Positions 6,946 to 35,323 of a stretch of DNA of 35,448 bases are shown in pieces; position 1 is the first letter of the stretch, and each line of letters starts with the position of its first letter. This stretch comes from Oligoflexus sp. Lineage in GTDB: Bacteria; Bdellovibrionota_B; Oligoflexia; Oligoflexales; Oligoflexaceae. The stretch is taken from the NCBI GenBank assembly GCA_041736305.1, contig JBGSTX010000164.1, positions 1 through 35,448 on the forward strand. The letters run 5' to 3'. Below the pieces are notes generated by a model, which made no database searches, had not been told where the DNA came from, and saw only the letters and a list, made by a program, of their open reading frames with translations. The position numbers and the translations under genes were made by a program.

Positions 6946-8427
6946 ATGATGCGAAACAATTTTGGTGCTCGGGTAATAGTCTTCTTTCTCTGGTGCCTCT
7001 TAGCTGTGTCTCTGGCTTGTTTTGGCTTCTATCTGGCTTACGGCAATGCAACTCCAGCTTTGTTTTTAGTTGATGTCGCCGGTCTAGACCTGGCCTTCAC
7101 TCTCCGCATCGATGCTCTCTCCACTCTTATGTTCATGACTATTTCGTTTCTCATGGCGGTCGTCGGCCAGTATGCGCTTCGCTACCTCGATGGTGAGGAG
7201 CGACAATGGTATTTCTATCGCTGGCTCCTGGTGACCGTTACATCTGTTACGATGCTAGTGCTGTCGAGCAATCTCCTTATGTTTTTTATCGCCTGGTGGT
7301 GCATGAGTTGGGGCTTGCATCATCTGCTGCTCTATAACGAACACCGCAAGGCAGCGGTGTATGCCGCGAGGAAAAAGTTGCTCGTGAGCCGACTCGGCGA
7401 CTTGGCGGTCATGGGAGCCATATTTTTTACCTACCGAGCTTGCGGCAGCTTCGATTTCCGCGATATTTTCGCTCTTGCCGAGGGAGCGCATGGCCCGCTC
7501 AGCGACGTCCAGATCTTTTCCTTCAATGTGGCGGGAGTTCTGTTGGCTTTTGGTGCCATGATTAAGTCGGCACAGTTTCCTTTTCACTTCTGGTTGCCCG
7601 AGACCATGGAAACTCCGACCCCTGTTTCAGCCCTCATGCATGCAGGGATCATCAACGCCGGTGGCTTTCTGACGATTCGACTCAGTCCTATCATGAGTCA
7701 TGCAACCTTCGCTTGCCTCATTCTTGCTCTGGTGGGAGCCTTCTCGGCGGTATATGGCTCTTTGGTGATGATGACGCAAAACAATGTAAAGAAGAAGCTA
7801 GCCTATTCGACGATTAGCCAGATGGGGATGATGCTTTTCGCCTGCGGTCTAGGGGCCTACGCACTGGCTCTCTTTCACATCATCGCCCATAGTTTTTATA
7901 AGGCGCACGCTTTTCTCAGTACCGGTGACCTTGTTGAAGAGAGCAAGCGCCTCTCGCTCCCTCTTCGGCCGCTTAAGCGCGTCTATCGTCTCCTGGCGAT
8001 TGCCGGCGGTGCGCTGATCCTCATAGTGGTTGCCCGCTGGGAGGCAAACACCTGGCTCGCTACTGCGGCGTACGGCGTCGTACTTCTCCTCGCTCTGCTG
8101 CAAAGTCTGAGCTACCTCGCCTTCGAACTCAAACCTCTTGGGAGAACTTTGGGCTTTTTGCTGCTCGCAGGCATCATCTATGCCGCCATGGAGCGAGGTT
8201 TGTACGCTTGGACTATTACTGAGCTATCCCGGGTACCAGGCTCCAACCCCTGGATCATGAGCGCCGTAGCTTTGTGCTATTTGATTTTCGTCGCCGGTTT
8301 TTGGCTGTCGAACGAACTGATGCGACCCCGCGGTCCTAGGATGCAAAAACTCTATGCGAGACTATGGAACGACAGTCATTTCGGGGTTCGCACGAGTCGA
8401 TTGCTCGCACGGATCTGGCCCGTTTAG
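6946..8427 (+). CDS. dabB: DAB inorganic carbon transporter membrane subunit (NuoL/ND5-like)
   Basis: RIDALS, YLDGE, SRLGD, KSAQFPFHFWLPETMETPTPVSALMHAG, LAYST and AHSFYKAHAFL motifs; directly upstream of the DUF2309 gene. Confidence 0.9.
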   Translation: MMRNNFGARVIVFFLWCLLAVSLACFGFYLAYGNATPALFLVDVAGLDLAFTLRIDALSTLMFMTISFLMAVVGQYALRYLDGEERQWYFYRWLLVTVTSVTMLVLSSNLLMFFIAWWCMSWGLHHLLLYNEHRKAAVYAARKKLLVSRLGDLAVMGAIFFTYRACGSFDFRDIFALAEGAHGPLSDVQIFSFNVAGVLLAFGAMIKSAQFPFHFWLPETMETPTPVSALMHAGIINAGGFLTIRLSPIMSHATFACLILALVGAFSAVYGSLVMMTQNNVKKKLAYSTISQMGMMLFACGLGAYALALFHIIAHSFYKAHAFLSTGDLVEESKRLSLPLRPLKRVYRLLAIAGGALILIVVARWEANTWLATAAYGVVLLLALLQSLSYLAFELKPLGRTLGFLLLAGIIYAAMERGLYAWTITELSRVPGSNPWIMSAVALCYLIFVAGFWLSNELMRPRGPRMQKLYARLWNDSHFGVRTSRLLARIWPV

Positions 8428-8457
8428 CCAAGAGTAACGAGCTGAAAGGAAGATGCG

Positions 8458-10887
8458 ATGGTCTCATCAGATGCTGCCCATAATTCGGTGCCCGCGACGC
8501 GCGCATCAGTGCTCGAGGCTCAACGCCTCAGCGTGCCTTCCTGGCCTTTGCAAAGCTCGGTTGCCGTCAATCCCTTCTGGAACTTGCGGGACCGTGACTT
8601 CACAGCTGTCATGACAGATCTGGCCCCTCTGCTTCACCGTCGTCTCTATATGCCTCTCGCTTACTATCTGGAACGCTATAGCCGCGGTTACATCAGCGAG
8701 GATGCGTTGGCGAGCGCCTTGGAGGCTGCTCAGAAGCGCCTGCCGACAGCTCCCGAGACGCTCGATGAGCTGATATGGAACTCGTCGAGCGATCGTGGTC
8801 TTCGCAAAGAAATACTGAGTTTTGCCGAATATCATGCGCAGAAAACAGGTGACTCGCTCCTCGCGCCACTGGTAATCGATGAGCTTTCCAAGTATGCCTC
8901 TGCCTACCTCGACCAGAACCAAGCGGTCGCCAAGTTCCCTTGGCAGTCTCAAGGTTTTTGGGAAGCCTGGTTGGCAGCACAAGGCTGCGATGATTCGATG
9001 GATGCAGCTGGTTTTAAGGGTTTTCAGGCCGCTGTAAGAGCTTTCCACTCTCTCACGGCTGAAGAGTTTATCGAGTTGGCGTTGAGCAAGTTCGCCTTCA
9101 AGTCGAGTCGAGACGAGACGCTTTATCTCTCGCGCCTGCTCGCGCTCCACCTCGGCTGGTCGACCCAGTTCAGTCTCGCCGCGTGGCCGACCACCCAAGA
9201 TAAGTCTAAGGCTGCTCGTCTTCTTGATTTTCTCGCCGTATGCCTCGCCTACGACTACGTTCTCGCCACGCTTGTGGCAGCTGATGAGTCCGAGGGAACT
9301 CTGGTCTGGAAGCGGAGTTTCGCAGCTATCAAATCGAGTCAGAGTTCGCGCGTGCACGAGTTCGAACTGCATCAGATCTGGCAGTACGCTCTGGAGCTTA
9401 GCTACCAACGCAGCGTGGCTTCATTGCTGGACCGACCGCTGCCTCCTCTGCATCCGCCTCGCTATCAGGTCGTGACCTGCATCGATGTGCGCTCGGAGCC
9501 TCTGCGCCGCGCCCTTGAGAAAAGATCCGAACAACTCAGCACCATCGGTTTTGCAGGCTTTTTTGGTCTGCCTTTCGCCTATCAAAAAATCGGTGACAAA
9601 ATCTCGCAAGGCCGTTTGCCTGTCCTGCTGTCGGCTGCTTTTACGGTGAACGAGAGAGCCAAGACATCTCACGGGAAGGCAGTGAAGTCGAAGAGTTTCA
9701 GTCAGGCCTTTTATAAGAATTTTAGGAAAGGGCCGCTCTCTTCTTTTCTATACGTCGAACTCTTTGGGCTCTTGGCCCTAGGGCGCTTAATTCGGAGAGT
9801 TGGACAGGCGGCTCTATCTCCTTTCACTCTGCGTGGCATGCCGCGGAGATTTGATGACCGCGATAGGGAGCCTGCAGTCGAGTCCAATTTGAATGGAGAA
9901 GAGCTTGCGGTCTACGCCGATCGTTTGGCCGGCGTGCTTCGGCACATGGGGCTGACGCGGGATTTTGCATCTCTCATCCTGATTACGGGCCATGGGAGTG
10001 CAACGGAGAATAACGCTTTTGCGTCGGCTCTCGATTGCGGTGCCTGCGGTGGGCATGCGGGCGATATCAATGCGCGCTTCCTCTGCAGCATGCTCAATCT
10101 GCCAGCGATACGTTCGGCACTCAAAAGTCGGGATATTGAGATTCCCGAATCCAGCTACTTCGTGCCAGCGATTCATGAAACCGTGACGGACACTATTTTT
10201 ATACTCGATAGGGATAAGATTCCAGCCGGCTGGAAGGCAGCGGTCGAAGAGCTGCAAAGCTTTATCGAGCGAGCCAGCCGCTCCGCGCAGAAGGAAAGGC
10301 AGAAAGCCCATTCGGTCTTTCTCGACAAGTCTGCCGAGCGCCGCAGCAAAAATTGGTCGGAGTTGCGGCCTGAATGGGGCCTCGCTGGCAACGCCTGTTT
10401 TATCGTAGCACCGCGGCAGTGGACCAGAGGTCTCAACTTTGCCGGCCGCTCTTTTCTGCACGATTACTGCTGGCAGGACGATAAGGAATTTAAGACTCTC
10501 GAGCTGATCCTGACCGCGCCGATGGTAGTGACCAACTGGATCAATCTGCAATATTACGCCTCGACAGTTGCCCCGGATGTTTACGGCTCGGGTAACAAGA
10601 TACTCCATAATCTCGTCAACGAAATGGGAGTTCTCGAAGGCAATGCCGGAGGACTGCGGGTGGGCCTGCCTTGGCAATCCGTTCACGATGGCGCGCAGTT
10701 TGTGCACGAACCTCTGCGCCTTTCGGTATTCATAGCGGCTCCTGAGCAGGCTATTGAAGGTATTGTAGTGCAGCACTCGGTGGTTCGCGAGTTAGTCGAC
10801 AACGGTTGGCTCTATATTCTGCGCATAGACGATGATACACGCCAGGTCACACGTCGGCTCCCCGGGGGCACCTACGAGCTCGTTTAG
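8458..10887 (+). CDS. dabA: DAB inorganic carbon transporter subunit (DUF2309/UPF0753, beta-carbonic-anhydrase-like Zn site)
   Basis: WPL..VAVNPF, CIDVRSE, GFAGFFG, GHGS, DCGACGG, RPEWGLA, NWINLQYY and HEPLRL motifs; AAAGGAAG RBS. Confidence 0.95.
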   Translation: MVSSDAAHNSVPATRASVLEAQRLSVPSWPLQSSVAVNPFWNLRDRDFTAVMTDLAPLLHRRLYMPLAYYLERYSRGYISEDALASALEAAQKRLPTAPETLDELIWNSSSDRGLRKEILSFAEYHAQKTGDSLLAPLVIDELSKYASAYLDQNQAVAKFPWQSQGFWEAWLAAQGCDDSMDAAGFKGFQAAVRAFHSLTAEEFIELALSKFAFKSSRDETLYLSRLLALHLGWSTQFSLAAWPTTQDKSKAARLLDFLAVCLAYDYVLATLVAADESEGTLVWKRSFAAIKSSQSSRVHEFELHQIWQYALELSYQRSVASLLDRPLPPLHPPRYQVVTCIDVRSEPLRRALEKRSEQLSTIGFAGFFGLPFAYQKIGDKISQGRLPVLLSAAFTVNERAKTSHGKAVKSKSFSQAFYKNFRKGPLSSFLYVELFGLLALGRLIRRVGQAALSPFTLRGMPRRFDDRDREPAVESNLNGEELAVYADRLAGVLRHMGLTRDFASLILITGHGSATENNAFASALDCGACGGHAGDINARFLCSMLNLPAIRSALKSRDIEIPESSYFVPAIHETVTDTIFILDRDKIPAGWKAAVEELQSFIERASRSAQKERQKAHSVFLDKSAERRSKNWSELRPEWGLAGNACFIVAPRQWTRGLNFAGRSFLHDYCWQDDKEFKTLELILTAPMVVTNWINLQYYASTVAPDVYGSGNKILHNLVNEMGVLEGNAGGLRVGLPWQSVHDGAQFVHEPLRLSVFIAAPEQAIEGIVVQHSVVRELVDNGWLYILRIDDDTRQVTRRLPGGTYELV

Positions 10888-21299: not shown

Positions 21300-21812
21300 T
21301 CAGCCTCGATCCCATTCACCCAAGTCCGCAGCTGCAACTCCGATCGTGTTTATCAGGGAAACATGTGAAAAAGCCTGCGGATAGTTGCCAAGGAGGCGCC
21401 GTGTCCGAGGATCATATTCTTCTGATAGAAGCCCAAGATCACTCTGAATGCGGAGCACCCAAGCCAGATGCTTGAGGGCCTTCTTGAATCTCTTTTGCAA
21501 GATATAGTTATCGATTAGCCAAAATGTGCAGGGAATAAAGGTGCCTTCGCCGGGGGGAAGCGATCATCGATCCGATGCGTATTGTAGCGATAGACGAAGC
21601 CTTTCTCACTCAGACGCTCTTCAATAGCACTGACGGTGCCCAGTATCCTCGGGTCTGTGGCGGGCAGAAAACCTACCTTGGCGAGAATGAGGAGGCTGGC
21701 GTCGAGAGCATTGGAGCCCGGAGCGTTGACAAAGGAATTAAGCTGGGGATTAAAATGCTCTCGGCAGATCAGGTCGTGAATTTTGGAGCGCATGTGTCTC
21801 CAGTGCTGAAGA
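21300..21812 (-). pseudogene. GH15 (glucoamylase/trehalase-like) C-terminal remnant with a frameshift
   Basis: LQHWRHMRSKIHD...LDASLL...DPR..GTV.AIE...VYRY, then a frameshift near 21550-21562, then LPPGEGTFIPCTFWLIDNY...DLGLLSEEYDP...LGNYPQAFSH. Confidence 0.88.
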
Positions 21813-21912
21813 GGGCTACCCGTGCGCCCAGGGCGGCAAAGGCTCGTGCTGTCGCGCGACCAACACCGGCTGAAGCTCCAGTGATAACGACAACTAATTT
21901 TTTATGCTGCAT
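21813..21912 (-). pseudogene. Short-chain dehydrogenase/reductase N-terminal remnant
   Basis: MQHKKLVVVITGASAGVGRATARAFAALGARVAL contains the TGxxxGxG motif; GGAGG RBS; runs directly into GH15 sequence. Confidence 0.85.
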
Positions 21913-22155
21913 GCGCAATTCCTCCAAGACATATTTTTTGAAAAATTGCCTCAAGAGAGTAAAAACAAGAAGACAAGGCAAAGTCATTTTCGTTTGCCAA
22001 GTGGAAAGGACCCTTACTATACAGTCACTTCATATCTATAGCTATACAGAGTATTGTGGAGGGAATTATCGCAGCTTGCTGGAGCTCGAATTTGAGAGGA
22101 TTCAATAGAGAGAGTAGTCTGACCTTCGCAGCCCATTTAGTTTCTTAGGGTAATC

Positions 22156-23236: not shown

Positions 23237-23707
23237 TCAGTCTATCCTTGCTAAAGCCGCTGAAATGCTACTGAGAAAGTGTTCAAGAGGCGTGCGAGGC
23301 TGCTCATAGAGATAGGCAGCGATATCGTGAGCTTCTTGTACCGTTACACCAAGATCGGGCATGAGAGTCTCGGGAGAGATTACCTGTGGATCGGAAATCC
23401 AGCGGGCCATATTCTCGGGTGTGTTAGCCAAAATTCCCGCGATATAAATTTGTTCGGAGATATCGCTGAGCTGGGGGCCGACCCTACCACTAGCCTCCAT
23501 CACTCCTTCGATGACATGGCAAGCTCCACATCCATAATGCTCTATAGATAATCTTCCGCGCTCTTTATCCCCTAGAGGCGCATAGCGGCGAGGCTCGGCC
23601 GGATGACGTTGCAAGCCGAGCACAAACATGTTTCCCAGCATAAATAGCAGCGAAGCTACCCCTGAAGCAGCGATAATCCATAAGAATGAGTGAGAGAAAA
23701 TTTTCAA
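23237..23707 (-). CDS. Membrane-anchored monoheme c-type cytochrome
   Basis: N-terminal TM, CGACH, GRVGPQL, and WISDPQ...LMP with the axial Met. The TTG start is uncertain. Confidence 0.88.
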   Translation of the reverse strand: MKIFSHSFLWIIAASGVASLLFMLGNMFVLGLQRHPAEPRRYAPLGDKERGRLSIEHYGCGACHVIEGVMEASGRVGPQLSDISEQIYIAGILANTPENMARWISDPQVISPETLMPDLGVTVQEAHDIAAYLYEQPRTPLEHFLSSISAALARID

Positions 23708-23898: not shown

Positions 23899-24375
23899 AT
23901 GGATCGACGCCAGGTTCTTTCGCTGACGATAACGGGGACCGGATTAGTAGTCGCAGGAATAGTAGTGGTTCCTTCACTCATCAGCATTTTCTCGCCTGCA
24001 TTCGAAGCAAGGCCTGCTAGCCTCTGGCAGGCTGTGGCGGAGGTTGATAGGTTTAAGATCGGTGAAATGCAAAAAAGCTTGCTGTCTATTGCCTCTCCGG
24101 CCCGCGCTGATGAACTGAGCCAGAAGGCGATCTACGTCTGGCGACGTTCAGCAGATGAATTTGTTGTTTATTCCCGATCCTGCACTGATCTGGGCTGTCC
24201 CCTGGTATGGGATGCGGGAAGTGAATGGTTCTTCTGCCCCTGTCACGGGGGCATTTTCGACAAGGAAGGACAGCGTCGGGCAGGGCCTCCCAAGCTTCCT
24301 ATGTGGCGCTATGAAAGCCGTATTGAAAATGGTGTTCTGGAGATCAATCTGAGATCCGTTCCTCCCATGGTCTAA
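23899..24375 (+). CDS. qcrA: Rieske [2Fe-2S] subunit of a Rieske/cytochrome b complex, with a variant box I
   Basis: ATG 23899 after AGGAGAGG; Tat signal DRRQVL; box I CTDLGC; box II CPCHGG; GPP motif. Confidence 0.9.
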   Translation: MDRRQVLSLTITGTGLVVAGIVVVPSLISIFSPAFEARPASLWQAVAEVDRFKIGEMQKSLLSIASPARADELSQKAIYVWRRSADEFVVYSRSCTDLGCPLVWDAGSEWFFCPCHGGIFDKEGQRRAGPPKLPMWRYESRIENGVLEINLRSVPPMV

Positions 24376-24390
24376 GCATTGGAAGACGAA

Positions 24391-25839
24391 ATGGCTCAAG
24401 ACGAAAAAGACGAAGGATTGCCTGAAGGTCACAGGGGAATACGGTCCTGGATCATCAAGCGTTTTGCCTTGAAGCCCATTGCCGATCGAGCCCTTTTTCG
24501 CAGAGTTCCCAACGCGCGCTGGTATTACGGGGATGGGGCAGCGCTCCTCCTTCTTTTTGGTATCCTTTTAATCACCGGAGCCTTTTTATCACTGATGTAT
24601 TCGCCGGCCCCCGCGACAGCCTATGAGAGCGTGCGGGCGATCACAGAGCAGCACAAGCTAGGCTGGTTCGTGCGAGCCCTCCACTACTGGTCGGCTGGTA
24701 TGATGGTTGTCGTTCTCTTGCATCACTTGCTGCGGCATATCCTACTCGGTGGCTACCTACCACCGCGGGAAGGCACTTGGATTGTCGGGGTATTGATGTT
24801 CATCCTAGTGATCGTCAATTCTTATCTGGGCTATACCTTACGCTGGGACGAGAGGGCTGTTTATGCCATCCGTGTCGCGCTCAACATGTTTTATCAGGTG
24901 CCATTCATCGGAGAGAGACTTGTCGTTTTTCTCCAGGGAGGCTGGGACATTGGCGTCACCACCCTCAGTCGCTTCTACTCCGTCCATGTAGTCTTTGTCC
25001 CTTTGCTGTTCGTCACATTTGTCGCCTATCATCTTTATCTCATCATTTATCATGGCGTGACGACCATACCCGAACGAATCGATCCGGTGGAAACAGCCGA
25101 AGACCAAAAGAAACTCTACGATCAGCTTAAGCATAGCAAAAAGCATGGGACTCAATTCTATCCTTATACGATGTTTGAATCTTGGGCTTTTTCGCTGGTG
25201 GTATTTGCCATAGTCCTGACGCTGACTCTAAGTTTCGGACCCGCAGAACTTTATCCCGAAGCAAATTTTATCGAGGACTCGCGTCCAATCGAGGAATGGT
25301 GGTGGCATTGGTACAGCGCTTTGATTGCCCATTTGCCGCCAGCCATAGCACCATATTTTTACTGGATGGCTCCTCTCGGCTTGATCATCCTTTTGCTCAC
25401 TTTGCCCTTGATTGATCACGGCGCGAATCGTGGATTGCGACATAGGCCTATCGCAGTTTTGTCAAGCGTCGCAGTCGTCGTGGGCATCTTAGCCCTAACA
25501 GGTCAACGCCTGCGTTCACCCTGGACGGCTTGGCCGCGGAGCGCATTGGCTCCACTGCCCCGCGACATTCAGCTCACAGAATCTGGACAGCGAGGCCATC
25601 AGCTTTTTTCGCAATACGGCTGTTTCAATTGCCATGCATTGGGGGGGCACGGCGCAGAAGTAGGACCCAATCTCACGGCCCTTGAGGTAAGGCTCTCAGC
25701 TGATGAACTAAAGCACTTCATCTTGCAGCCGCCCGAACATGCTGCGATGCCTGCCTATAAGAATCGGATTAGCGAAGCCGACCTCAGTTCTATAGTGGAT
25801 TTTGTTCTGGTGGCTCAAACTTTTCCGCGTCAATACTAA
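24391..25839 (+). CDS. qcrB: Cytochrome b (b6-like plus subunit IV) fused to a C-terminal cytochrome c
   Basis: RALHYW...HHLLR, PPRE.TW..G and RFYSVH...YH heme ligands; C-terminal CFNCH...GPNL...AMP. Start is ATG 24391 or TTG 24379. Confidence 0.92.
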   Translation: MAQDEKDEGLPEGHRGIRSWIIKRFALKPIADRALFRRVPNARWYYGDGAALLLLFGILLITGAFLSLMYSPAPATAYESVRAITEQHKLGWFVRALHYWSAGMMVVVLLHHLLRHILLGGYLPPREGTWIVGVLMFILVIVNSYLGYTLRWDERAVYAIRVALNMFYQVPFIGERLVVFLQGGWDIGVTTLSRFYSVHVVFVPLLFVTFVAYHLYLIIYHGVTTIPERIDPVETAEDQKKLYDQLKHSKKHGTQFYPYTMFESWAFSLVVFAIVLTLTLSFGPAELYPEANFIEDSRPIEEWWWHWYSALIAHLPPAIAPYFYWMAPLGLIILLLTLPLIDHGANRGLRHRPIAVLSSVAVVVGILALTGQRLRSPWTAWPRSALAPLPRDIQLTESGQRGHQLFSQYGCFNCHALGGHGAEVGPNLTALEVRLSADELKHFILQPPEHAAMPAYKNRISEADLSSIVDFVLVAQTFPRQY

Positions 25840-25852
25840 GGAGGGGGAATTC

Positions 25853-26872
25853 ATGCGCGGCAATTCTCATCCTCTTCTATCCCTTAAGGTGATTCCCGTT
25901 TCACTCGCATTCGCTAGCCTCGCTCATGCAGTACCCCAGAGTCTGCTTGAAAAGGTAGGGACTTCGGCACTCGATCCTGCCGGTCCCGCAGCGGAGAAGA
26001 TAGCGGCACTAACTTGGGTAATGATCGTGGGTTTCGGCCTCTTATTCGTATTCATAATGGGGCTGCTCATCATAGGGATAAAAAGAGGAGAGAATAGTGG
26101 AAAAAGTCAAGCGCCTCTGGGTGATCGTCGCTTTGTGGTGATTGGCGGACTGCTGATGCCACTAGTTATTCTGCTCTTGCTCCTGGTCTACACTCTGCTT
26201 CTGACGGCTTCGCTCGGACCCAAGGAGTCGCGCCTGAAGATTCGCGTCACCGGACATATGTGGTGGTGGGATGTTTACTATCCGGAAAGCAATCTGAGAA
26301 TTGCCAACGAGATCTATATTCCAGCCGGCGAGCCCATCCTTATCGAGCTGGTGTCAAAGGACGTTATTCATAGCTTCTGGGTGCCGAGCCTGGCCGGCAA
26401 GACTGATCTTGTTCCTGGAATCACCAACTATCAATGGCTCGAAGCTGACAGGCCCGGCACCTACCGCGCTCAGTGCGCAGAATTTTGCGGCCTGCAGCAT
26501 GCGCGCATGGCTCTCTATGTCGTGGCCCTGCCGCCGGAAGAATTTGCGAAGTGGCTGGCATCCAAGCAAAGATCGCAGCCTGTGCCCCAGGATCCCCGCA
26601 TGCAAGCGGGCCTTGCAACCTTTGTCAAGGCAGGTTGTGGGGAATGCCACACCATTCAAGGAACAGAAGCGAGGGGATTGATCGGCCCTGACCTGACCCA
26701 TGTGGGTAGTCGGCTCTCATTGGGAGCCGGGACGATTCCCAATAGTTATGGTTCAATGGCCGGATGGGTGGCCAATCCCCAGGCCCTGAAGCCTGGCAAC
26801 AAGATGCCCCCTTCCTATGTCGCCAGTCAGGACTACCACTCTCTCATCTCCTACCTCATGAGTCTTCAATGA
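25853..26872 (+). CDS. ctaC: Cytochrome c oxidase subunit II with a fused cytochrome c (caa3-like)
   Basis: ATG 25853 after AAGGAGG; GHMWWW; CuA motifs DVIHSFW and CAEFCGLQHARM; CGECH...KMP. Confidence 0.93.
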   Translation: MRGNSHPLLSLKVIPVSLAFASLAHAVPQSLLEKVGTSALDPAGPAAEKIAALTWVMIVGFGLLFVFIMGLLIIGIKRGENSGKSQAPLGDRRFVVIGGLLMPLVILLLLLVYTLLLTASLGPKESRLKIRVTGHMWWWDVYYPESNLRIANEIYIPAGEPILIELVSKDVIHSFWVPSLAGKTDLVPGITNYQWLEADRPGTYRAQCAEFCGLQHARMALYVVALPPEEFAKWLASKQRSQPVPQDPRMQAGLATFVKAGCGECHTIQGTEARGLIGPDLTHVGSRLSLGAGTIPNSYGSMAGWVANPQALKPGNKMPPSYVASQDYHSLISYLMSLQ

Positions 26873-29418
26873 TAGATAGCAAAGCCAATGCCGCCGGAGT
26901 CCGCTCAATAGGTGAATACCCTAGTGACGAGGAGCAAAAGGAGTTCGAAGCGACATGGAAGGCTCCCGAAGGAATTCGAGACTGGTTTGCGACAGTCAAC
27001 AATCAGCCTTTCGGCAACCGCTTTATGATTTCCTCGTTGGTCTTTTTTCTCATCGCCGGCATTATGGCTTTGATCATGCGCGTGCAGCTGGCAGTGCCGG
27101 ATCATGATGCGATAGGCCCCGATCTTTACAACAAGCTGTTTACCATGCACGGGGCCACCATGATGTTTCTGGTGGTATTGCCCTTTCTGGAAGGCATCGC
27201 CATCTATATTCTACCGCTGGTCGTTGGATCCCGGGAGATGGCCTTCCCTCGCATGAGTGCTTTCAGCTTCTGGGTGTTTTTTTCAGGGGCCCTAATCTTT
27301 TTCACAGGCTTTATTTTTAATGCGGTCCCTGATGCAGGATGGTTTGTCTATCCCCCTCTGTCACTTGAAAGGTATTCCGGTCTGGGCTTAGATTTCTTAT
27401 TGGTGGGCCTGGGCTTTATTGAGATAGCTGGAGTAGGGACGGGAATAGAAATTGTTACTACCATCCTAAAGTTTCGGGCGCCGGGTATGTCCCTCGGCAG
27501 GATGCCTCTCTTTGCATGGGCCTGGCTCGTCACGGGTGTCATGATCATTATAGCCTTTTCCACTTTGTTTGGAGCCACAGTCCTGATCGAGTTTGATCGG
27601 GCGATCGGTACCCGCTTTTTCGATCCTGAGGGGGGTGGTAATGTACTCCTTTGGCAGCATCTCTTCTGGTTCTTCGGTCACCCCGATGTCTATATTATGT
27701 TTATCCCCGCGACGGGCATCATCTCGATGATCATTCCTACTTTTGCCCGACGACCTATCGCTGCTTACTCCTATGTAGCCGTGGCGATTCTCCTCACGGG
27801 TTTTCTCAGCTTTGGTCTTTGGGTGCATCATATGTTTGCTACGGGCATCCCCGCTCTGGCCTCGGGCTTCTTTGTGGCTGCTAGTCTGATGATTGCTCTG
27901 GCAAGCGGAGTGCAAGTATTCGCTTGGATCGCTACGCTGTGGGGGAGTCGACCTGATATCAAGTCCCCCCTCCTTTTTGTGCTTGGGTTCCTCTGCATTT
28001 TCGTATTGGGGGGTATTACAGGTGTAATGGTTGCTGTTCTGCCCTTCGATTTGCAAGCGCATGATACTTATTTCGTGGTGGCACATTTTCACTATGTACT
28101 GATCGGTGGAGTGATTTTTCCTATCCTGGGTGGGCTCCACTACTGGCTGCCACTGATGACGGGATATTTGCCTAGTGAACGACTGGCTCGTTGGAGCTTC
28201 TGGCTGATTTTTATAGGCTTTAATCTAACGTTTTTTCCCATGCATGTCGCCGGGCTTCTAGGAATGTCCCGCCGCGTATATACCTATTCAGCAAGCCTAA
28301 ACGTTGGCTGGTACAATCTGCTTTCGAGCGTATCGTCCTTCATCTTAGGTGCCGGCTTTGTAATCGCCACAATCAACCTCTTGGGATCTCGCTATTTAGG
28401 GCGGAAGGCTGGTAAGAATCCATGGAACTCCGGAGCTTTGGAGTGGTCACTTATGGTCGATATGCCGAACTATGTGTTCCGCGCTCCGCCTGTGATTCTC
28501 GCTCGCGAACCCCTATGGCAGGCAGAGGCAGGAGGGGATAGCTACCTGAATCGTCTGGCCCGGCAGTTGACATCGAGGCCTTCTGCTTGGAGGGCAACCC
28601 TGATCACCGATGCGATTAGTGGTGAGCCGCAGGCCATACAAAAGGTATCGACGCCTTCCTACGTACCTATCACCGCCGCAATCGGACTCTTTATCATGTC
28701 GGTAGCAACACTTTTTAAAGCCTATATATTAGCCTTAGCTGCTCTTGTCTTTACCTTAGGCGTCGTTTGCTATTGGCTTTGGCCGGAGGAGAGGGAGCTT
28801 AAAAAAATGCGAGAGAGCGGCCTGGGTGAACTCACGGGATTGCCTCTCGAACCGACAGGAGCGCTCGCATCAGGTTGGTGGGCCATGGTCGGTACTTTAA
28901 CTGTTATCGGCACAATTTTCGGCGTCTTGTTTTATTCTTATTTTTATATCAGGATTTACTCTCCAAGCTGGCCTCAAGGTGGGATAGCATTACCGGAAAT
29001 TTGGCCTTCATCAATTTTCTATGCAGCGCTCTTGCTGGGGGCACTTAGTTTTCATTGGGCCGAGAAAAACTTTCAGAAGAACTCAGCGCGAGCAAGTCTG
29101 CTGGGAATATCGGGGAGTCTGCTGGCGGCGCTCATATTTCTTGCCTCGAGCATGTTTCACATCGTAGGGATAGGCTTTACGCCACAGGAAAACGCGTATG
29201 CCTCCCTCTTTCATACCATCACCTGGCATCTGGCGGCTCTCGTGCTGGGAGGCGCCATGTTTCTCGCGGCGCTACTTATCAAAACGATTCAATCGCAAGG
29301 GCAGCGAACTGGCTATCTGATCCTGCAGCTGCAGGTCACCGGCCTCTATTGGTACTTCACAGCAGTGGTTGGAGTCTTGTCTTTTGCCACTCTTTTCCTC
29401 TCACCCTACCTTTTGTAA
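26869..29418 (+). CDS. ctaD: Heme-copper oxidase subunit I fused to a subunit III-like domain
   Basis: ATG 26869 overlaps the subunit II stop (ATGA). FTMHG, WFFGHPDVY, WVHHMF and HDTYFVVAHFHY motifs; C-terminal NAYASLF...WH...LYWYF typical of subunit III. Confidence 0.93.
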   Translation: MIDSKANAAGVRSIGEYPSDEEQKEFEATWKAPEGIRDWFATVNNQPFGNRFMISSLVFFLIAGIMALIMRVQLAVPDHDAIGPDLYNKLFTMHGATMMFLVVLPFLEGIAIYILPLVVGSREMAFPRMSAFSFWVFFSGALIFFTGFIFNAVPDAGWFVYPPLSLERYSGLGLDFLLVGLGFIEIAGVGTGIEIVTTILKFRAPGMSLGRMPLFAWAWLVTGVMIIIAFSTLFGATVLIEFDRAIGTRFFDPEGGGNVLLWQHLFWFFGHPDVYIMFIPATGIISMIIPTFARRPIAAYSYVAVAILLTGFLSFGLWVHHMFATGIPALASGFFVAASLMIALASGVQVFAWIATLWGSRPDIKSPLLFVLGFLCIFVLGGITGVMVAVLPFDLQAHDTYFVVAHFHYVLIGGVIFPILGGLHYWLPLMTGYLPSERLARWSFWLIFIGFNLTFFPMHVAGLLGMSRRVYTYSASLNVGWYNLLSSVSSFILGAGFVIATINLLGSRYLGRKAGKNPWNSGALEWSLMVDMPNYVFRAPPVILAREPLWQAEAGGDSYLNRLARQLTSRPSAWRATLITDAISGEPQAIQKVSTPSYVPITAAIGLFIMSVATLFKAYILALAALVFTLGVVCYWLWPEERELKKMRESGLGELTGLPLEPTGALASGWWAMVGTLTVIGTIFGVLFYSYFYIRIYSPSWPQGGIALPEIWPSSIFYAALLLGALSFHWAEKNFQKNSARASLLGISGSLLAALIFLASSMFHIVGIGFTPQENAYASLFHTITWHLAALVLGGAMFLAALLIKTIQSQGQRTGYLILQLQVTGLYWYFTAVVGVLSFATLFLSPYLL

Positions 29419-29428
29419 GGAGAGCTGC

Positions 29429-29791
29429 TTGGAAAAGCACTTGGGCATCTGGTTTTGTTTGCTGGGTGGAGCCATAGCCTGGACCCTGCACCTATTGATC
29501 TGCTATGGACTTAGTGAGGCATTCTGCATCATGGGTCCGCCATCTATCTACTTTTTGGGCGTGAATTTGCTAGCTTACGTCTTAGGTCTAGTGACTCTCG
29601 TACTTTTGGGTATGGCCTTAGCAGCTGTGGTACTGTCTCGCCGTCAGGCATTAAGTCGTCCTGCAGCTGCGGGTGAGCAGTCCGACAGTTGGGCATTTAC
29701 AGCCCGAGCTGGATTCTTAGCTAATGTGGTGTTTAGTATAAGCATCATGGCTCAGTCTCTACCTATTTTTACCCTGCTTGGACGCTGTTGA
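29429..29791 (+). CDS. Small three-TM membrane protein in the oxidase operon
   Basis: TTG 29429 after AAGGAG; hydrophobic, with W..H....Y......C and a C-terminal Cys; tightly packed between ctaD and ctaG. Confidence 0.7.
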   Translation: MEKHLGIWFCLLGGAIAWTLHLLICYGLSEAFCIMGPPSIYFLGVNLLAYVLGLVTLVLLGMALAAVVLSRRQALSRPAAAGEQSDSWAFTARAGFLANVVFSISIMAQSLPIFTLLGRC

Positions 29792-29792
29792 G

Positions 29793-30698
29793 ATGAAGTC
29801 CAAGCACGGCGGATTTATCTTCTGCATTCTCGCCTCTGGTTTCGAGCAGGTGGCGACAGCTCATGCTTTGCAAACTGCCACGGGGACGCTGGACGGCTTC
29901 GCTCTTCTTTGGTTTTCATTGATTTTGGTACAGGTGGGACTTGTGACTCTGGCCTATACAAAAGGGTGGCGGCGATGGAGACTCAAACCTCGTACTCATA
30001 GCGTCGGCTCGGAGCTGCAGCCCTTTTTCTTCGGACTGGGAGTGTTCTCACTGCTCTCGGCTTTGCTACCACCGATTGATACGCTGAGCGAAGAATTGGC
30101 CTCAGTGCACATGGTGCAGCATATGCTTCTGATGATGGTGGCTGCTCCTCTTCTCATCGTAGGTGCCTCGCCGCATTTTGTCCTTTTGGGTCTGCCTAGT
30201 AAATGGCGACGCCAAATTTGGGTATGGAGACGGTTTATGATCCGCTTGGGTAGGCCCCTCATGGGGCCGAGACGAGCTGGGACCATTGCAGGTCTTTATG
30301 CATGTATCCTTTGGCTTTGGCATCTGCCTCAGCTATATCAGGCGGCGCTTGAAAATCGCCTGCTTCATGGTCTGCAGCATGTGGCGTTTTTTGGTGGCGC
30401 TTACTTCTTCTGGCGTGTAGTCCTTAACCCGCGGCTTCACCTGCGCGTGAATCTAGGAACGGGGATCTTGTATCTCTTTGTTGCCTCCCTCCATTCGATG
30501 GCGCTAGGCGTCCTCATGGCGGTGGCACCCTCGGTTTGGTACAAGCCTTATATCAGCAGTAGCTGGAAGCATGGCCTGAGTGCGCTGGAGGACCAGCAGA
30601 TTGCTGGCTATATTATGTGGATGCCGGCGGGGATGACTTATGTTGTGGTCGCTGGTGCCTTGATGCTTGAAGTGCTTAGACGCTCAGAAAGCTCGTGA
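29793..30698 (+). CDS. ctaG: Caa3_CtaG cytochrome c oxidase assembly factor
   Basis: SVHMVQHMLLMMVAAPL, WLWHLP.LY, HGLQH and LEDQQIAGYIMWMP motifs. Confidence 0.92.
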   Translation: MKSKHGGFIFCILASGFEQVATAHALQTATGTLDGFALLWFSLILVQVGLVTLAYTKGWRRWRLKPRTHSVGSELQPFFFGLGVFSLLSALLPPIDTLSEELASVHMVQHMLLMMVAAPLLIVGASPHFVLLGLPSKWRRQIWVWRRFMIRLGRPLMGPRRAGTIAGLYACILWLWHLPQLYQAALENRLLHGLQHVAFFGGAYFFWRVVLNPRLHLRVNLGTGILYLFVASLHSMALGVLMAVAPSVWYKPYISSSWKHGLSALEDQQIAGYIMWMPAGMTYVVVAGALMLEVLRRSESS

Positions 30699-32614: not shown

Positions 32615-32873
32615 GGATATTGCCCTCCGTATAAGCTGCTATCGAAAGTGTGCTAATAAAACCGAGAAGAGAAAGAACGAGGAGCACATCGATATAGTGG
32701 AAGGATCGCAACTGGATCGATTCCAGACAAATCAATCCCATGACAAGAAACACGAAACAATCAAAGCCGACAAGTCGATCAAACACGGTTGGACCTTTGA
32801 ATATTCTGCCGACGGCAAGGGCAATCCCTGCAATCAAAACCAGCATGAAAACCCAAACAAATTCCATCATCAT
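32607..32873 (-). CDS. mrpF: Mrp Na+/H+ antiporter subunit F
   Basis: RIFKGPTVFDRLVGFD and YIDVLLVLSLLGFIST motifs. Confidence 0.93.
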   Translation of the reverse strand: MMMEFVWVFMLVLIAGIALAVGRIFKGPTVFDRLVGFDCFVFLVMGLICLESIQLRSFHYIDVLLVLSLLGFISTLSIAAYTEGNILE

Positions 32874-33373
32874 GGTCTACCCTCGCTAGCTTGGTCCGAT
32901 TGAGTAGATTTCAACTTGGACATTCTACTAAGAAAAGTGCCAATTTCAGTTCTAATCTTATCGACATCCTCTCCATAGAGAGTGTGAACATATAAGCCAT
33001 GGCCATTTTTATCAGCATCCAAAGTCAAGCTTCCAGGTGTCAGAGATATCATATTTCCAAGCAAAACGGTCTGCGCCGGACTGAGGTCTCTGCAATCGAC
33101 TCGAAAAAAAGCGTGGGTGAACTTTGTACGACTCCATAGGATATCGCGAGCCAGCGAAATATTGGCTCTTAGCACGCTCAAAAAGAACAGCGCGGATATC
33201 TTGATCAAGTCTCTCATATGAGATGATGTTCCTGGTCTGGGATTCACCTTTTCACTCAGCCCGAGCGCGACAAAGCTCAGACCAAAACCGGTCAATAAGC
33301 CTGTCAGGGTGAAGTCATTCCTCATGAACATCCATATAACGGACAGTATCAAGTGCCAGTATAGCTTTCTCAT
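32870..33373 (-). CDS. mrpE: Mrp Na+/H+ antiporter subunit E
   Basis: RANISLA, NMISLTPGSL and LYVH motifs. Confidence 0.92.
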   Translation of the reverse strand: MRKLYWHLILSVIWMFMRNDFTLTGLLTGFGLSFVALGLSEKVNPRPGTSSHMRDLIKISALFFLSVLRANISLARDILWSRTKFTHAFFRVDCRDLSPAQTVLLGNMISLTPGSLTLDADKNGHGLYVHTLYGEDVDKIRTEIGTFLSRMSKLKSTQSDQASEGRP

Positions 33374-33884
33374 TGCCTGACCCCTTTCAGTCCACTCTTG
33401 TCCAGATCGAGGACTGCTGAGATATACTCATCAACAGTCAAAAGTCTCAATGAATATCGATGAAAATTTTCAAACAAAGGAATTGCCATGACGCCGATGC
33501 CTATTGAAATCGAAGCAAGAAGCAGCGCACCGATATACAGTCGATGAATCTTCGGCACGGGCCGCCAGACACTTTGAGCGGCATCGCCCCAATACGAAGT
33601 GCTCCAGATTTTTAGCATGGAGGCCAGCGTAAGAAAGCTGACCAGAATCGCGATTGTGCTGGTAATCCAAGCTTCATTCTGAAAACCTGCCATGATCAAA
33701 AATAGCTTGGCCCAAAACCCACTGAGTGGAGGCAAACCGGCCAGCGCCAGTGCCAGGATCAAGAAAGCTGTAGCAGCCGTAGGGTCTAGGCGCAAGACCC
33801 CTTGCGCTACACCCAGTTTGCCTGTTCCGGCGCGAAGTTCCAAGATTCCTACAGCCATGAATAGAGCCGATTTTACTACGATAT
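33370..33884 (-). pseudogene. mrpD: Mrp subunit D, C-terminal third only, cut by an IS
   Basis: IVVKSALF and LALAGLPPLSGFWAK motifs; the N-terminal part is replaced by IS sequence from 33885. Confidence 0.88.
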
Positions 33885-33904
33885 CTTGAGAGTCAGGAGT
33901 ATTG

Positions 33905-35323
33905 CTACGCACTTCGCTCACAATATTCCTGATTCATTGATACTTCCATCTTCTCTCGCAAGAATTTCTTGAAAGAAAGCGGGTCTTTCTTGCTCCAAAA
34001 ATATTCCAAATACGCTTTCTTCAAGGCTTCCGAGGTTACGGCTTCGCTAGGAGCGAGATCTTTCCTGATTGTCCTCATCCAGCCGCCGAAAGATTGCCAA
34101 ACCAAGTCAGTTTTCGTTATCGCGAGGTAATCGAGAAGTCCTTGAGCGATAGCGGCTAGGTTGACGAATACATGGTAAGCGTGCATCTTTTCTCGGACCT
34201 TAGCTCGGTATTCTTCTGTCGCTCTATGGAGATATTGGGGTCCGGTTCCTCTCGTGATTTTTGTCATGGCCTTCATCCAGAAGTGATAACCGAAGCCTCC
34301 GACTGTGTGAACAAAGGCTTTGAAAGACAGTTCGATTCCAAACCTCGCATTATAAAGCCGAATAGCCTCCGAGGGAGAAAGTTCCCAGTCATTTGTCATG
34401 AATATACATCTGCCGCGGGTAGGATGGTCGCTGAGGATAAATCGAACTTTTCCTTGGATCTGCCTCCACATCAAATCTATGACATAATACCTTATTTTTA
34501 AGTGTCCTTCGTCCCGAATGGGACTCTGAATTTCGATGAAATCGTTATATCTATTCTCGAATAGATTCCATATTTTTAGTTTCTTGCCGTATTTCTTGGG
34601 GCGGCCGCGTCCCTGCTTTTTCCCGTCTGGGATCGGATAATATCCAACGACGTTGTGCTTAACCCTCACGAGCATTGTCGCACCATGGGCGATCATTGAA
34701 CTGAAGAGTTTGGCTGAAGCGTAATAGGCGTCAGCCACCATGAGGAAGTTTTTCCCAGCTCCGTTCGTCATGTTATGAAACATTGCACTCATTTTATCAA
34801 GTAGGGTCCGTTCATCTCTATTTGAAAAGACGAGGCCCTCGTGAATGCGAGACCCTATCAATACCGATGTGATTTTTCCTCCCAAGCTTTCGACCATTAG
34901 GGCCAGCATCTGCATCGAATGCGCCATGACGAAGTCAGGCTTCGAATTGTTCGTCGAAGATTGGTGGGAAAGCTTAACAGAGGGCATTTTCCGACCCTCC
35001 TTGGGGGCTTTTATCCCGTCGCAAGCAAGGACAATGCGGCCATTGACTATCACTGGCGTGAATAGTCGCAGGCAAATTTTCAACCAAAGTTGGTTCAGAA
35101 CATCTAGTTTGACAGCTTGAGAGTGAAAGCTGTCAATCAGAGATTGATAGCAGTTGGGCCTGAGTCCGAACGCACGAATAAAACTTGTCACACCCGCAGA
35201 GTCGGATCGAACGCAAAATCCCAATACCGTCAAACATGCCCATTGAGCAGTCCTTAATCGAGAAAAAGCTGGTCTCAACTCAAAAAATGCTTGGATCAAA
35301 ATCGTGCAGAGATTAACATCCAT
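33905..35323 (-). CDS. DDE transposase (IS4 superfamily, IS701-like)
   Basis: LACDGIK, VADAYY, GRGRPKKYGKK and Y..R..IE..FK (YREK-like) motifs; intact 472 aa. Confidence 0.9.
   Translation of the reverse strand: MDVNLCTILIQAFFELRPAFSRLRTAQWACLTVLGFCVRSDSAGVTSFIRAFGLRPNCYQSLIDSFHSQAVKLDVLNQLWLKICLRLFTPVIVNGRIVLACDGIKAPKEGRKMPSVKLSHQSSTNNSKPDFVMAHSMQMLALMVESLGGKITSVLIGSRIHEGLVFSNRDERTLLDKMSAMFHNMTNGAGKNFLMVADAYYASAKLFSSMIAHGATMLVRVKHNVVGYYPIPDGKKQGRGRPKKYGKKLKIWNLFENRYNDFIEIQSPIRDEGHLKIRYYVIDLMWRQIQGKVRFILSDHPTRGRCIFMTNDWELSPSEAIRLYNARFGIELSFKAFVHTVGGFGYHFWMKAMTKITRGTGPQYLHRATEEYRAKVREKMHAYHVFVNLAAIAQGLLDYLAITKTDLVWQSFGGWMRTIRKDLAPSEAVTSEALKKAYLEYFWSKKDPLSFKKFLREKMEVSMNQEYCERSA

Follow-up and report, generated by a model that had tools for sequence, protein, structure and literature searches.

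The Oligoflexus genome studied here is predicted to encode the iron–sulfur subunit of a menaquinol:cytochrome c oxidoreductase in which an aspartate stands in the place of the first histidine ligand of the Rieske cluster. The substitution is real, is fixed in a clade of related proteins, and had one origin. Our favored reading, held with moderate confidence, is that the protein belongs to an old clade that uses Asp as the first [2Fe-2S] ligand and works in a complex linked to a caa3-type oxidase. The further proposal, that this is a natural Cys2/His/Asp Rieske centre in a quinol-oxidizing complex III with a co-evolved Qo pocket (marked by an EEWW motif and by Arg93), is more tentative, and we give it a little less than an even chance. 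Rieske centres are defined by ligation through two cysteines and two histidines, and the histidines underlie their high, pH-dependent potentials and their proton-coupled oxidation of quinol.

The gene occupies positions 23899–24375 of the + strand of the window, which is the whole stretch of 35,448 nucleotides that was analyzed. It runs in an intact reading frame from an ATG at 23899, preceded by a GGAGAGG ribosome-binding site, to a stop codon at 24373–24375, and encodes a protein of 158 amino acids (P0001); its homologues are 155–160 amino acids long and share the start M-x-R-R. The Pfam Rieske profile PF00355 matches the translation at 39.6 bits (cut-off 20.3, E 5.1e-10). Three curated NCBIfam models score below their cut-offs: TIGR01416 (Rieske_proteo) at 56.4 bits versus 97.4, NF045928 (PetC) at 43.8 versus 250, and NF050121 (QcrA) at 29.5 versus 275. 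The N-terminus, MDRRQVL, leads into a hydrophobic helix, as in proteins with a Tat signal and a membrane anchor. The alignment and a structure model place the twin arginines, R3 and R4, at 23905–23910 (+) and the anchor helix at residues 3–35; of 133 aligned Rieske rows, 112 keep R3 and 119 keep R4.

In box I (24181–24198, +), the codons TGC ACT GAT CTG GGC TGT are in frame and encode C95-T-D97-L-G-C100, with GAT at 24187–24189 specifying Asp97, so that the C-x-H of a Rieske domain here reads C-T-D. Box II (24235–24258, +) has the expected C-x-x-H, in the form C113-P-C115-H116-G-G-I-F, and supplies a ligand Cys, a disulfide Cys, the retained ligand His and a G-F signature. Both disulfide cysteines, C100 and C115, are present and conserved in all 133 aligned rows, and C95, C113, P114 and H116 are equally invariant. 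Two residues ahead of the first ligand Cys lies Arg93 (24175–24177, +), which is specific to the Asp-type clade by row counts. No second conserved His besides H116 was found in the 133 aligned rows, and another His was accordingly rejected as a substitute ligand. Asp105, part of a clade-typical W-D-x-G-S, is also unlikely to serve as one: it lies ten residues into the inter-box loop, at the end of strand 103–105 before the hairpin turn, and is replaced by Glu in 4 of 74 clade rows and by Thr in P0123, a database protein discussed below.

The initial annotation of this DNA had read CTDLGC with GAT at 24187–24189 and had described an intact CPCHGG, both disulfide cysteines, a Tat signal and GGIF. 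All of these are borne out by the translation, and the interval it gave, 24181–24252, runs exactly from C95 to G118. It had also cautioned that a single-base slip could turn CAT into GAT, and had pointed to close relatives as the place where a His might be found. A word-indexed search of 5.8 billion proteins returned 369 relatives at E <= 1e-3, and among the matches listed Asp occupies the ligand site in 120 of 120 rows (the query and 119 relatives at 45–61% identity), which answers that question in favor of Asp. Box I reads CTDLGC in 103 of these 120 listed rows, CTDLSC in 14 and CSDLGC in 3, and none of the 120 has Glu, Asn or Ser at the Asp97 site.

When 1.84 billion cluster representatives were scanned in full with HMMER, 4405 matched. 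By motif pattern, the best 150 of the 4405 include 16 with Asp and 124 with His; two mis-registered rows contain C-x-H-L-G-C, and the eight rows missed by the pattern comprise three with Asp and five with His in which Ser replaces a Cys. The Asp rows are the nearest relatives of the Oligoflexus protein among these best 150. Scanning one genome per species gave 80 loci, of which 78 were usable once L039 (no Rieske motif) and L060 (a false pattern match) had been dropped; 62 are of the Asp type and 16 of the His type. With the window included, the Asp codon is GAC at 33 loci and GAT at 30. At the site itself, an assembled contig of run X1 spans 24149–24450 without a difference; this is a contig and not raw reads, and the run is possibly the window's own source. 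Contigs of runs X2 and X4 end before the Asp97 site. Because Asp is kept across phyla with both of its codons in use, the single-base slip feared in the initial annotation is excluded.

The predicted fold is that of a Rieske protein. A cofactor-free AlphaFold2 model, built from a 66-row clade alignment, has a mean pLDDT of 90.6, with values of 95–97 across residues 91–120, which include the cluster loops, and contains the N-terminal helix (3–35) and the expected beta strands. Its top Foldseek matches, at probability 1.0, are the Chlorobaculum Rieske domain (8hn2), Kuenenia kuste4569 (9rk4) and PetC chains of b6f complexes. As modelled, the Asp-type protein keeps the three-sheet beta structure with its cluster-binding subdomain. 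All Protein Data Bank sequences were also searched with phmmer and with a clade profile; 8hn2, 9rk4 and 1nyk/3fou are the best matches in both sequence and fold (profile E 5e-15 to 3e-13). Their two cluster loops align with those of the window protein residue for residue, except that theirs read CTHLGC and the window's reads CTDLGC. In both the phmmer and the profile alignments Asp97 pairs with the His of this motif in Thermus (1nyk/3fou), Chlorobaculum (8hn2) and Kuenenia (9rk4/9rk3). The five best-matching solved Rieske sequences in the Protein Data Bank all have CTHLGC, and no structure of the Asp type is among them.

We placed the Asp-type proteins in a tree of 165 rows, inferred under LG+G4 with a quick search after the ligand column had been taken out. 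The loci and the window contributed 79 rows, and the other 86 were representatives drawn from P0121–P0215; representatives shorter than 140 amino acids or without the motif were left out, as were P0216–P0270. In this tree, which had no access to the ligand itself, all 74 Asp rows and a single His row (P0123) form one clade with an SH-aLRT of 100. Mapping the ligand label onto the tree requires two changes, and the starred branches alone leave one change possible. Arg93 is found in 74 of 74 Asp-type rows but in just 2 of the 91 rows of the His type. Along with Asp105, Ser108, Ile119, Asp150 and Ser153, it belongs to the residues that are typical within the Asp clade and seldom seen elsewhere.

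The Asp-type clade spans at least nine phyla. By title, its 62 loci belong to Planctomycetota (27), Verrucomicrobiota (9), Bdellovibrionota (7), Thermodesulfobacteriota (7), Rhodothermota (4), Bacteroidota (2), and Acidobacteriota, Myxococcota and Krumholzibacteriota (1 each); three loci are unplaced, one of them from a Sericytochromatia genome. Within the window's own phylum an Asp-type Rieske protein occurs in 5 of 131 genomes at E <= 1e-25, and within its genus in 4 of 14, the present genome included. The wide yet patchy spread of the module, as far as sequences tell, fits lateral transfer. That the clade is old and has been widely transferred is part of our overall explanation, and we consider it reasonably probable on those terms. 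A separate observation concerns the genus, in which the Rieske copies are just 56–61% identical to that of the window, a patchy and divergent distribution.

The one His-type member of the clade, P0123, has CTHLSC in box I, Thr at the position of Asp105, and Arg93. It forms a singleton cluster known from one 3.4-kb contig. The protein differs from its neighbors at many positions and for this reason looks like a true reversion to His. Its retention of Arg93 together with His suggests that the background of the clade tolerates His. The metagenome scan gave relatives of 44–45% at best, and neither that scan nor the 3.4-kb contig yielded a cytochrome b partner for P0123.

The adjacent gene (24391–25839, +, starting at ATG 24391 or TTG 24379) encodes a cytochrome b that carries a fused class I cytochrome c at its C-terminal end (PF00033 at 134.5 bits, PF13631 and PF13442). 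The cytochrome b has the four heme-ligand histidines, spaced 14 and 15 residues apart, and the fused domain has the cytochrome c heme motif C-F-N-C-H at 25621–25635. We aligned the cytochrome b partners of 59 Asp-type and 14 His-type Rieske proteins. Each of the four heme ligands is kept in 58–59 of the 59 Asp-type partners, and the four histidines and the CxxCH...M-P of the cytochrome c domain are kept in both groups. Cytochrome b of the Asp type is about 31% identical to the His-type partners; identity within the Asp clade is about 50%.

The two groups part at the Qo site. Where the partner cytochromes of bc1, b6f and bcc complexes have P-E/D-W-Y, the window reads EEWW (25291–25302, +), identified by alignment as the PEWY equivalent within the motif region P-I-E-E-W-W (25285–25302, +); its two glutamates are Glu306 and Glu307 in stop-to-stop numbering. 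Among the 59 Asp-type partners the motif is EEWW in 54, EEWY in 2, AEWW in 1 and SEWW in 1, and the frame is broken in 1; among the 14 His-type partners it is PDWY in 10, PEWY in 2 and PDWF in 1, again with one broken frame. At two loci (L061 and L064) the cytochrome b frame leaves the alignment ahead of the Qo motif, maybe through a frameshift or an assembly error, and these were tallied as broken. The alignments indicate that the Asp clade carries a rebuilt Qo motif. Since Asp arose once, the link between it, Arg93 and EEWW counts as a single evolutionary event; judged from the sequences, the three are a shared signature of that event and not a case of repeated co-variation, and a functional coupling is not proven by it.

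Genes for a terminal oxidase follow on the same strand. The cluster in the window runs from the Rieske gene through cytochrome b-c, a cytochrome c oxidase subunit II with cytochrome c, a long subunit I and a 140-amino acid ORF without a family to ctaG. Subunit II (25853–26872, +; PF00116 at 68.8 bits, PF00034) is of the caa3 type with a fused cytochrome c. Subunit I (26869–29418, +; PF00115 at 473.7 bits) is about 850 amino acids long from its likely start, the ATG at 26869, which overlaps the coxII stop codon. The longest ORF starts at 26764 and has 884 residues, of which 86–527 match PF00115. At about twice the length of the 436-position COX1 profile, this protein has an extra C-terminal part that may be subunit III-like. 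The caa3-type oxidase assembly factor CtaG (29778–30698, +; PF09678 at 163.3 bits) has a homologue at the equivalent place in most Asp-type loci. Divergent from the Rieske gene is a gene for a membrane-anchored monoheme cytochrome c with a C-G-A-C-H motif (23237–23707, − strand; PF00034 E 8.9e-4, just below the cut-off). Its tblastn homologues, at 46–60% identity, occupy the minus strand upstream of the cluster in L002 and L003 or are found after ctaG at other loci (e.g. L013, L015, L023, L044 and L062), or after cytochrome b at Desulfobacterales-type loci; from its recurrence at these loci, this cytochrome may be a fixed component of the Asp-type module.

The association with the oxidase extends across the clade. 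Downstream sequence of at least 5.5 kb is available for 43 Asp-type loci; in 37 of them cox2 and cox1 follow immediately on the same strand, and in the other 6 they lie upstream or on the opposite strand. Among 11 His-type loci with as much downstream sequence, a cox2 match lies downstream on the same strand in 3 and a cox1 match in 1.

The window genome, at 5.0 Mb and 92.7% completeness, has one Rieske-domain match and one cytochrome b match, both at this locus, and the search turned up no others. It also encodes a bd oxidase and two further CoxI proteins. MenA scores above its cut-off in this genome and no proteobacterial UbiA does, and on this basis menaquinone is the probable quinone. Of five other Asp-type genomes, 2 have one cytochrome b and 3 have two or three, and each of the five contains additional Rieske-domain ORFs that differ in size. 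The extra cytochromes b in three of these genomes, together with the bd oxidase and additional CoxI genes of the window genome, imply that the module need not be essential.

Elsewhere in the window, at 6946–10887 (+), a gene for a DabB-like proton-pumping subunit (PF00361) precedes one for DabA (PF10070, 737 bits), an inorganic-carbon uptake pair. The region 32870–35323 (−) contains an Mrp antiporter mnhE gene and a 183-amino acid fragment, beside a DDE transposase gene. The fragment covers no more than the final third of the Proton_antipo_M profile, and the antiporter operon may have been interrupted by an insertion element. Three consecutive short ORFs of 66, 92 and 72 amino acids at 21300–21990 (−) may, judged by eye, be remnants of a glycoside hydrolase and a short-chain dehydrogenase (G-A-S-x-G-x-G).

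Among characterized systems, the actinobacterial bcc-aa3 supercomplex of Corynebacterium and Mycobacterium also combines a menaquinol-oxidizing Rieske/cytochrome b pair with a built-in c-type heme, and this unit feeds an aa3-type oxidase without a soluble carrier. Its Rieske protein differs in having canonical ligands and a three-helix anchor, and a separate diheme QcrC accompanies it. The likeness of the Asp-type module to this supercomplex is one of gene content. A different kind of parallel is offered by RsrR, which has an unrelated fold, is a cytoplasmic DNA-binding sensor, uses Glu and not Asp, and takes no part in quinol chemistry. In a 2019 paper listed among the references of PMC9338935, RsrR is reported as a natural [2Fe-2S] protein with Cys, Glu and His ligation, and it has likewise the mixed thiolate/imidazole/carboxylate coordination that is proposed here.

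The closest relatives in overall design are low-potential, menaquinol-oxidizing Rieske subunits that pair with fusions of cytochrome b and cytochrome c, known as the ‘PDWY-cyt c’ and ‘PEWY-cyt c’ clades from Kao & Hunte 2014 (PMC4122944). These share with the Asp-type proteins their size, Tat anchor, fold, box II, disulfide and G-F signature, and have the same gene order, in which the Rieske gene precedes one for a cytochrome b joined to a class I cytochrome c. The His-type rows adjoin the Asp clade in our tree. The Asp clade differs from them in having Asp and not His in box I, in the fixation of Arg93, and in a Qo motif of EEWW instead of P-D/E-W-Y. EEWW is absent from the main text of Kao & Hunte 2014 (PMC4122944), and the excerpted portion of that paper makes no mention of an Asp ligand; neither does the excerpt of one review (PMC7908018), nor a second review (PMC6349859).

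How such a centre might work can be considered from the roles of the two histidines in canonical proteins. The box II His of the window protein, His116, is presumably the equivalent of yeast His181, and we take the residue lost in the Asp clade to be the other histidine, bovine His141. Mutation of a Rieske His ligand in classical bc1 systems usually leads to loss of the cluster, which speaks against the reading favored here. In yeast, one of the cluster ligands is His181, which forms hydrogen bonds with the Qo inhibitors stigmatellin and HHDBT and takes up a proton (PMC9162462, in excerpt).

We hypothesize that the Asp-type protein would still bind a [2Fe-2S] cluster, in which His116 and the Asp97 carboxylate hold the outer iron, and that His116, the counterpart of the ligand that hydrogen-bonds quinol in solved complexes, would take the first electron and proton from menaquinol. 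As a chemical expectation, the anionic Asp97 would lower the midpoint potential and leave one protonatable ligand. More speculatively, Arg93 could partly offset the added negative charge, and the extra Glu of EEWW in the Qo pocket could re-route proton exit. Electrons would then pass to the cytochrome c fused to cytochrome b, to the cytochrome c on CoxII, and on to oxygen. The initial annotation had suggested a 2Cys/His/Asp cluster of lower potential; our findings are compatible with this, and it stays a suggestion read from sequence. It had further stressed GGIF, which does contain the G-F that, following CxCH, is called a ‘low potential’ signature of menaquinol-type Rieske proteins at ~150 mV (Kao & Hunte 2014, PMC4122944, in excerpt). 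Since CPCHGG.F/Y also occurs in many His-type rows, this signature does not set the Asp clade apart. The initial annotation did not mention how large and old the clade is, that Arg93 and the EEWW motif of cytochrome b changed along with Asp97, or that the module is tied to a caa3 oxidase.

The cluster might instead be bound by Cys95, Cys113 and His116, with water, hydroxide or another group at the fourth position and with Asp97 acting in the second sphere as a hydrogen-bond or proton acceptor, an arrangement we regard as unlikely. It accords with the invariance of the three canonical ligands and with the fact, from general chemistry, that a carboxylate is shorter than an imidazole; the clade-specific Arg93 could also pair with Asp97 and keep it off the iron. 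Direct ligation is nevertheless the better fit to an Asp that is invariant at the exact ligand position (120 rows among the matches listed), and RsrR, as reported, sets a precedent for a [2Fe-2S] cluster ligated by a carboxylate.

A slightly less likely possibility is that no [2Fe-2S] cluster is present, the domain being empty and structural or holding a single metal on Cys2/His/Asp, with electrons taking another route or the protein having another role. A defining ligand is indeed missing, the Qo motif is non-canonical, and the curated NCBIfam Rieske models are all below cut-off. Against this, the three other ligands have been strictly kept, together with the disulfide pair and the Tat signal, over at least nine phyla at only 40–60% overall identity, and a Tat signal is typical of proteins exported with their cofactor already bound. 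In addition, no second Rieske domain or cytochrome b was found in the window genome, and the clustered cytochrome c oxidase needs reduced cytochrome c.

Quite improbable is a ferredoxin-like site made entirely of cysteines (C95, C100, C113 and C115) and lacking the disulfide; all four are invariant, but they are equally conserved in His-type relatives, where two of them form a disulfide, and the likewise invariant His116 would be superfluous. A sequencing or assembly error that misread CAT as GAT, or a decaying pseudogene, has a negligible chance and is rejected: one base separates the His and Asp codons and the support at the site comes from assembled contigs and not raw reads, yet Asp is found in 120 of 120 rows among the matches listed and at 62 of 78 loci with both GAC and GAT in use, the frame is intact, and the X1 contig is identical over 24149–24450, even if X1 may be the source.

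An Asp-ligand Rieske clade was not found described in the open full-text literature, the Protein Data Bank or NCBIfam; subscription bioenergetics journals lay outside this scope. The clade is apparently new to the literature, and an earlier mention may exist in those journals. Under their source names its proteins pass for standard subunits of a ubiquinol- or menaquinol-cytochrome c reductase, so that the difference goes unnoticed when metabolism is reconstructed for Planctomycetota, Verrucomicrobiota, Bdellovibrionota and other groups. Carriers are available in culture (Oligoflexus tunisiensis, Phragmitibacter flavus and Anatilimnocola sp. NA78), which makes the question of the Asp ligand directly testable.

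If the proposed centre is confirmed, quinol oxidation would need only the box II His, and could proceed with one protonatable ligand, not two, and with the potential markedly lowered. Carboxylates would form the basis of a rebuilt path for proton exit, and the module would possibly be hard-wired to its caa3 oxidase without a classical high-potential chain. The clade would then be a ready-made natural experiment on which histidine the Qo reaction needs, and would show how far ligand chemistry can tune the potential of a [2Fe-2S] cluster for menaquinol and how the Qo pocket compensates.
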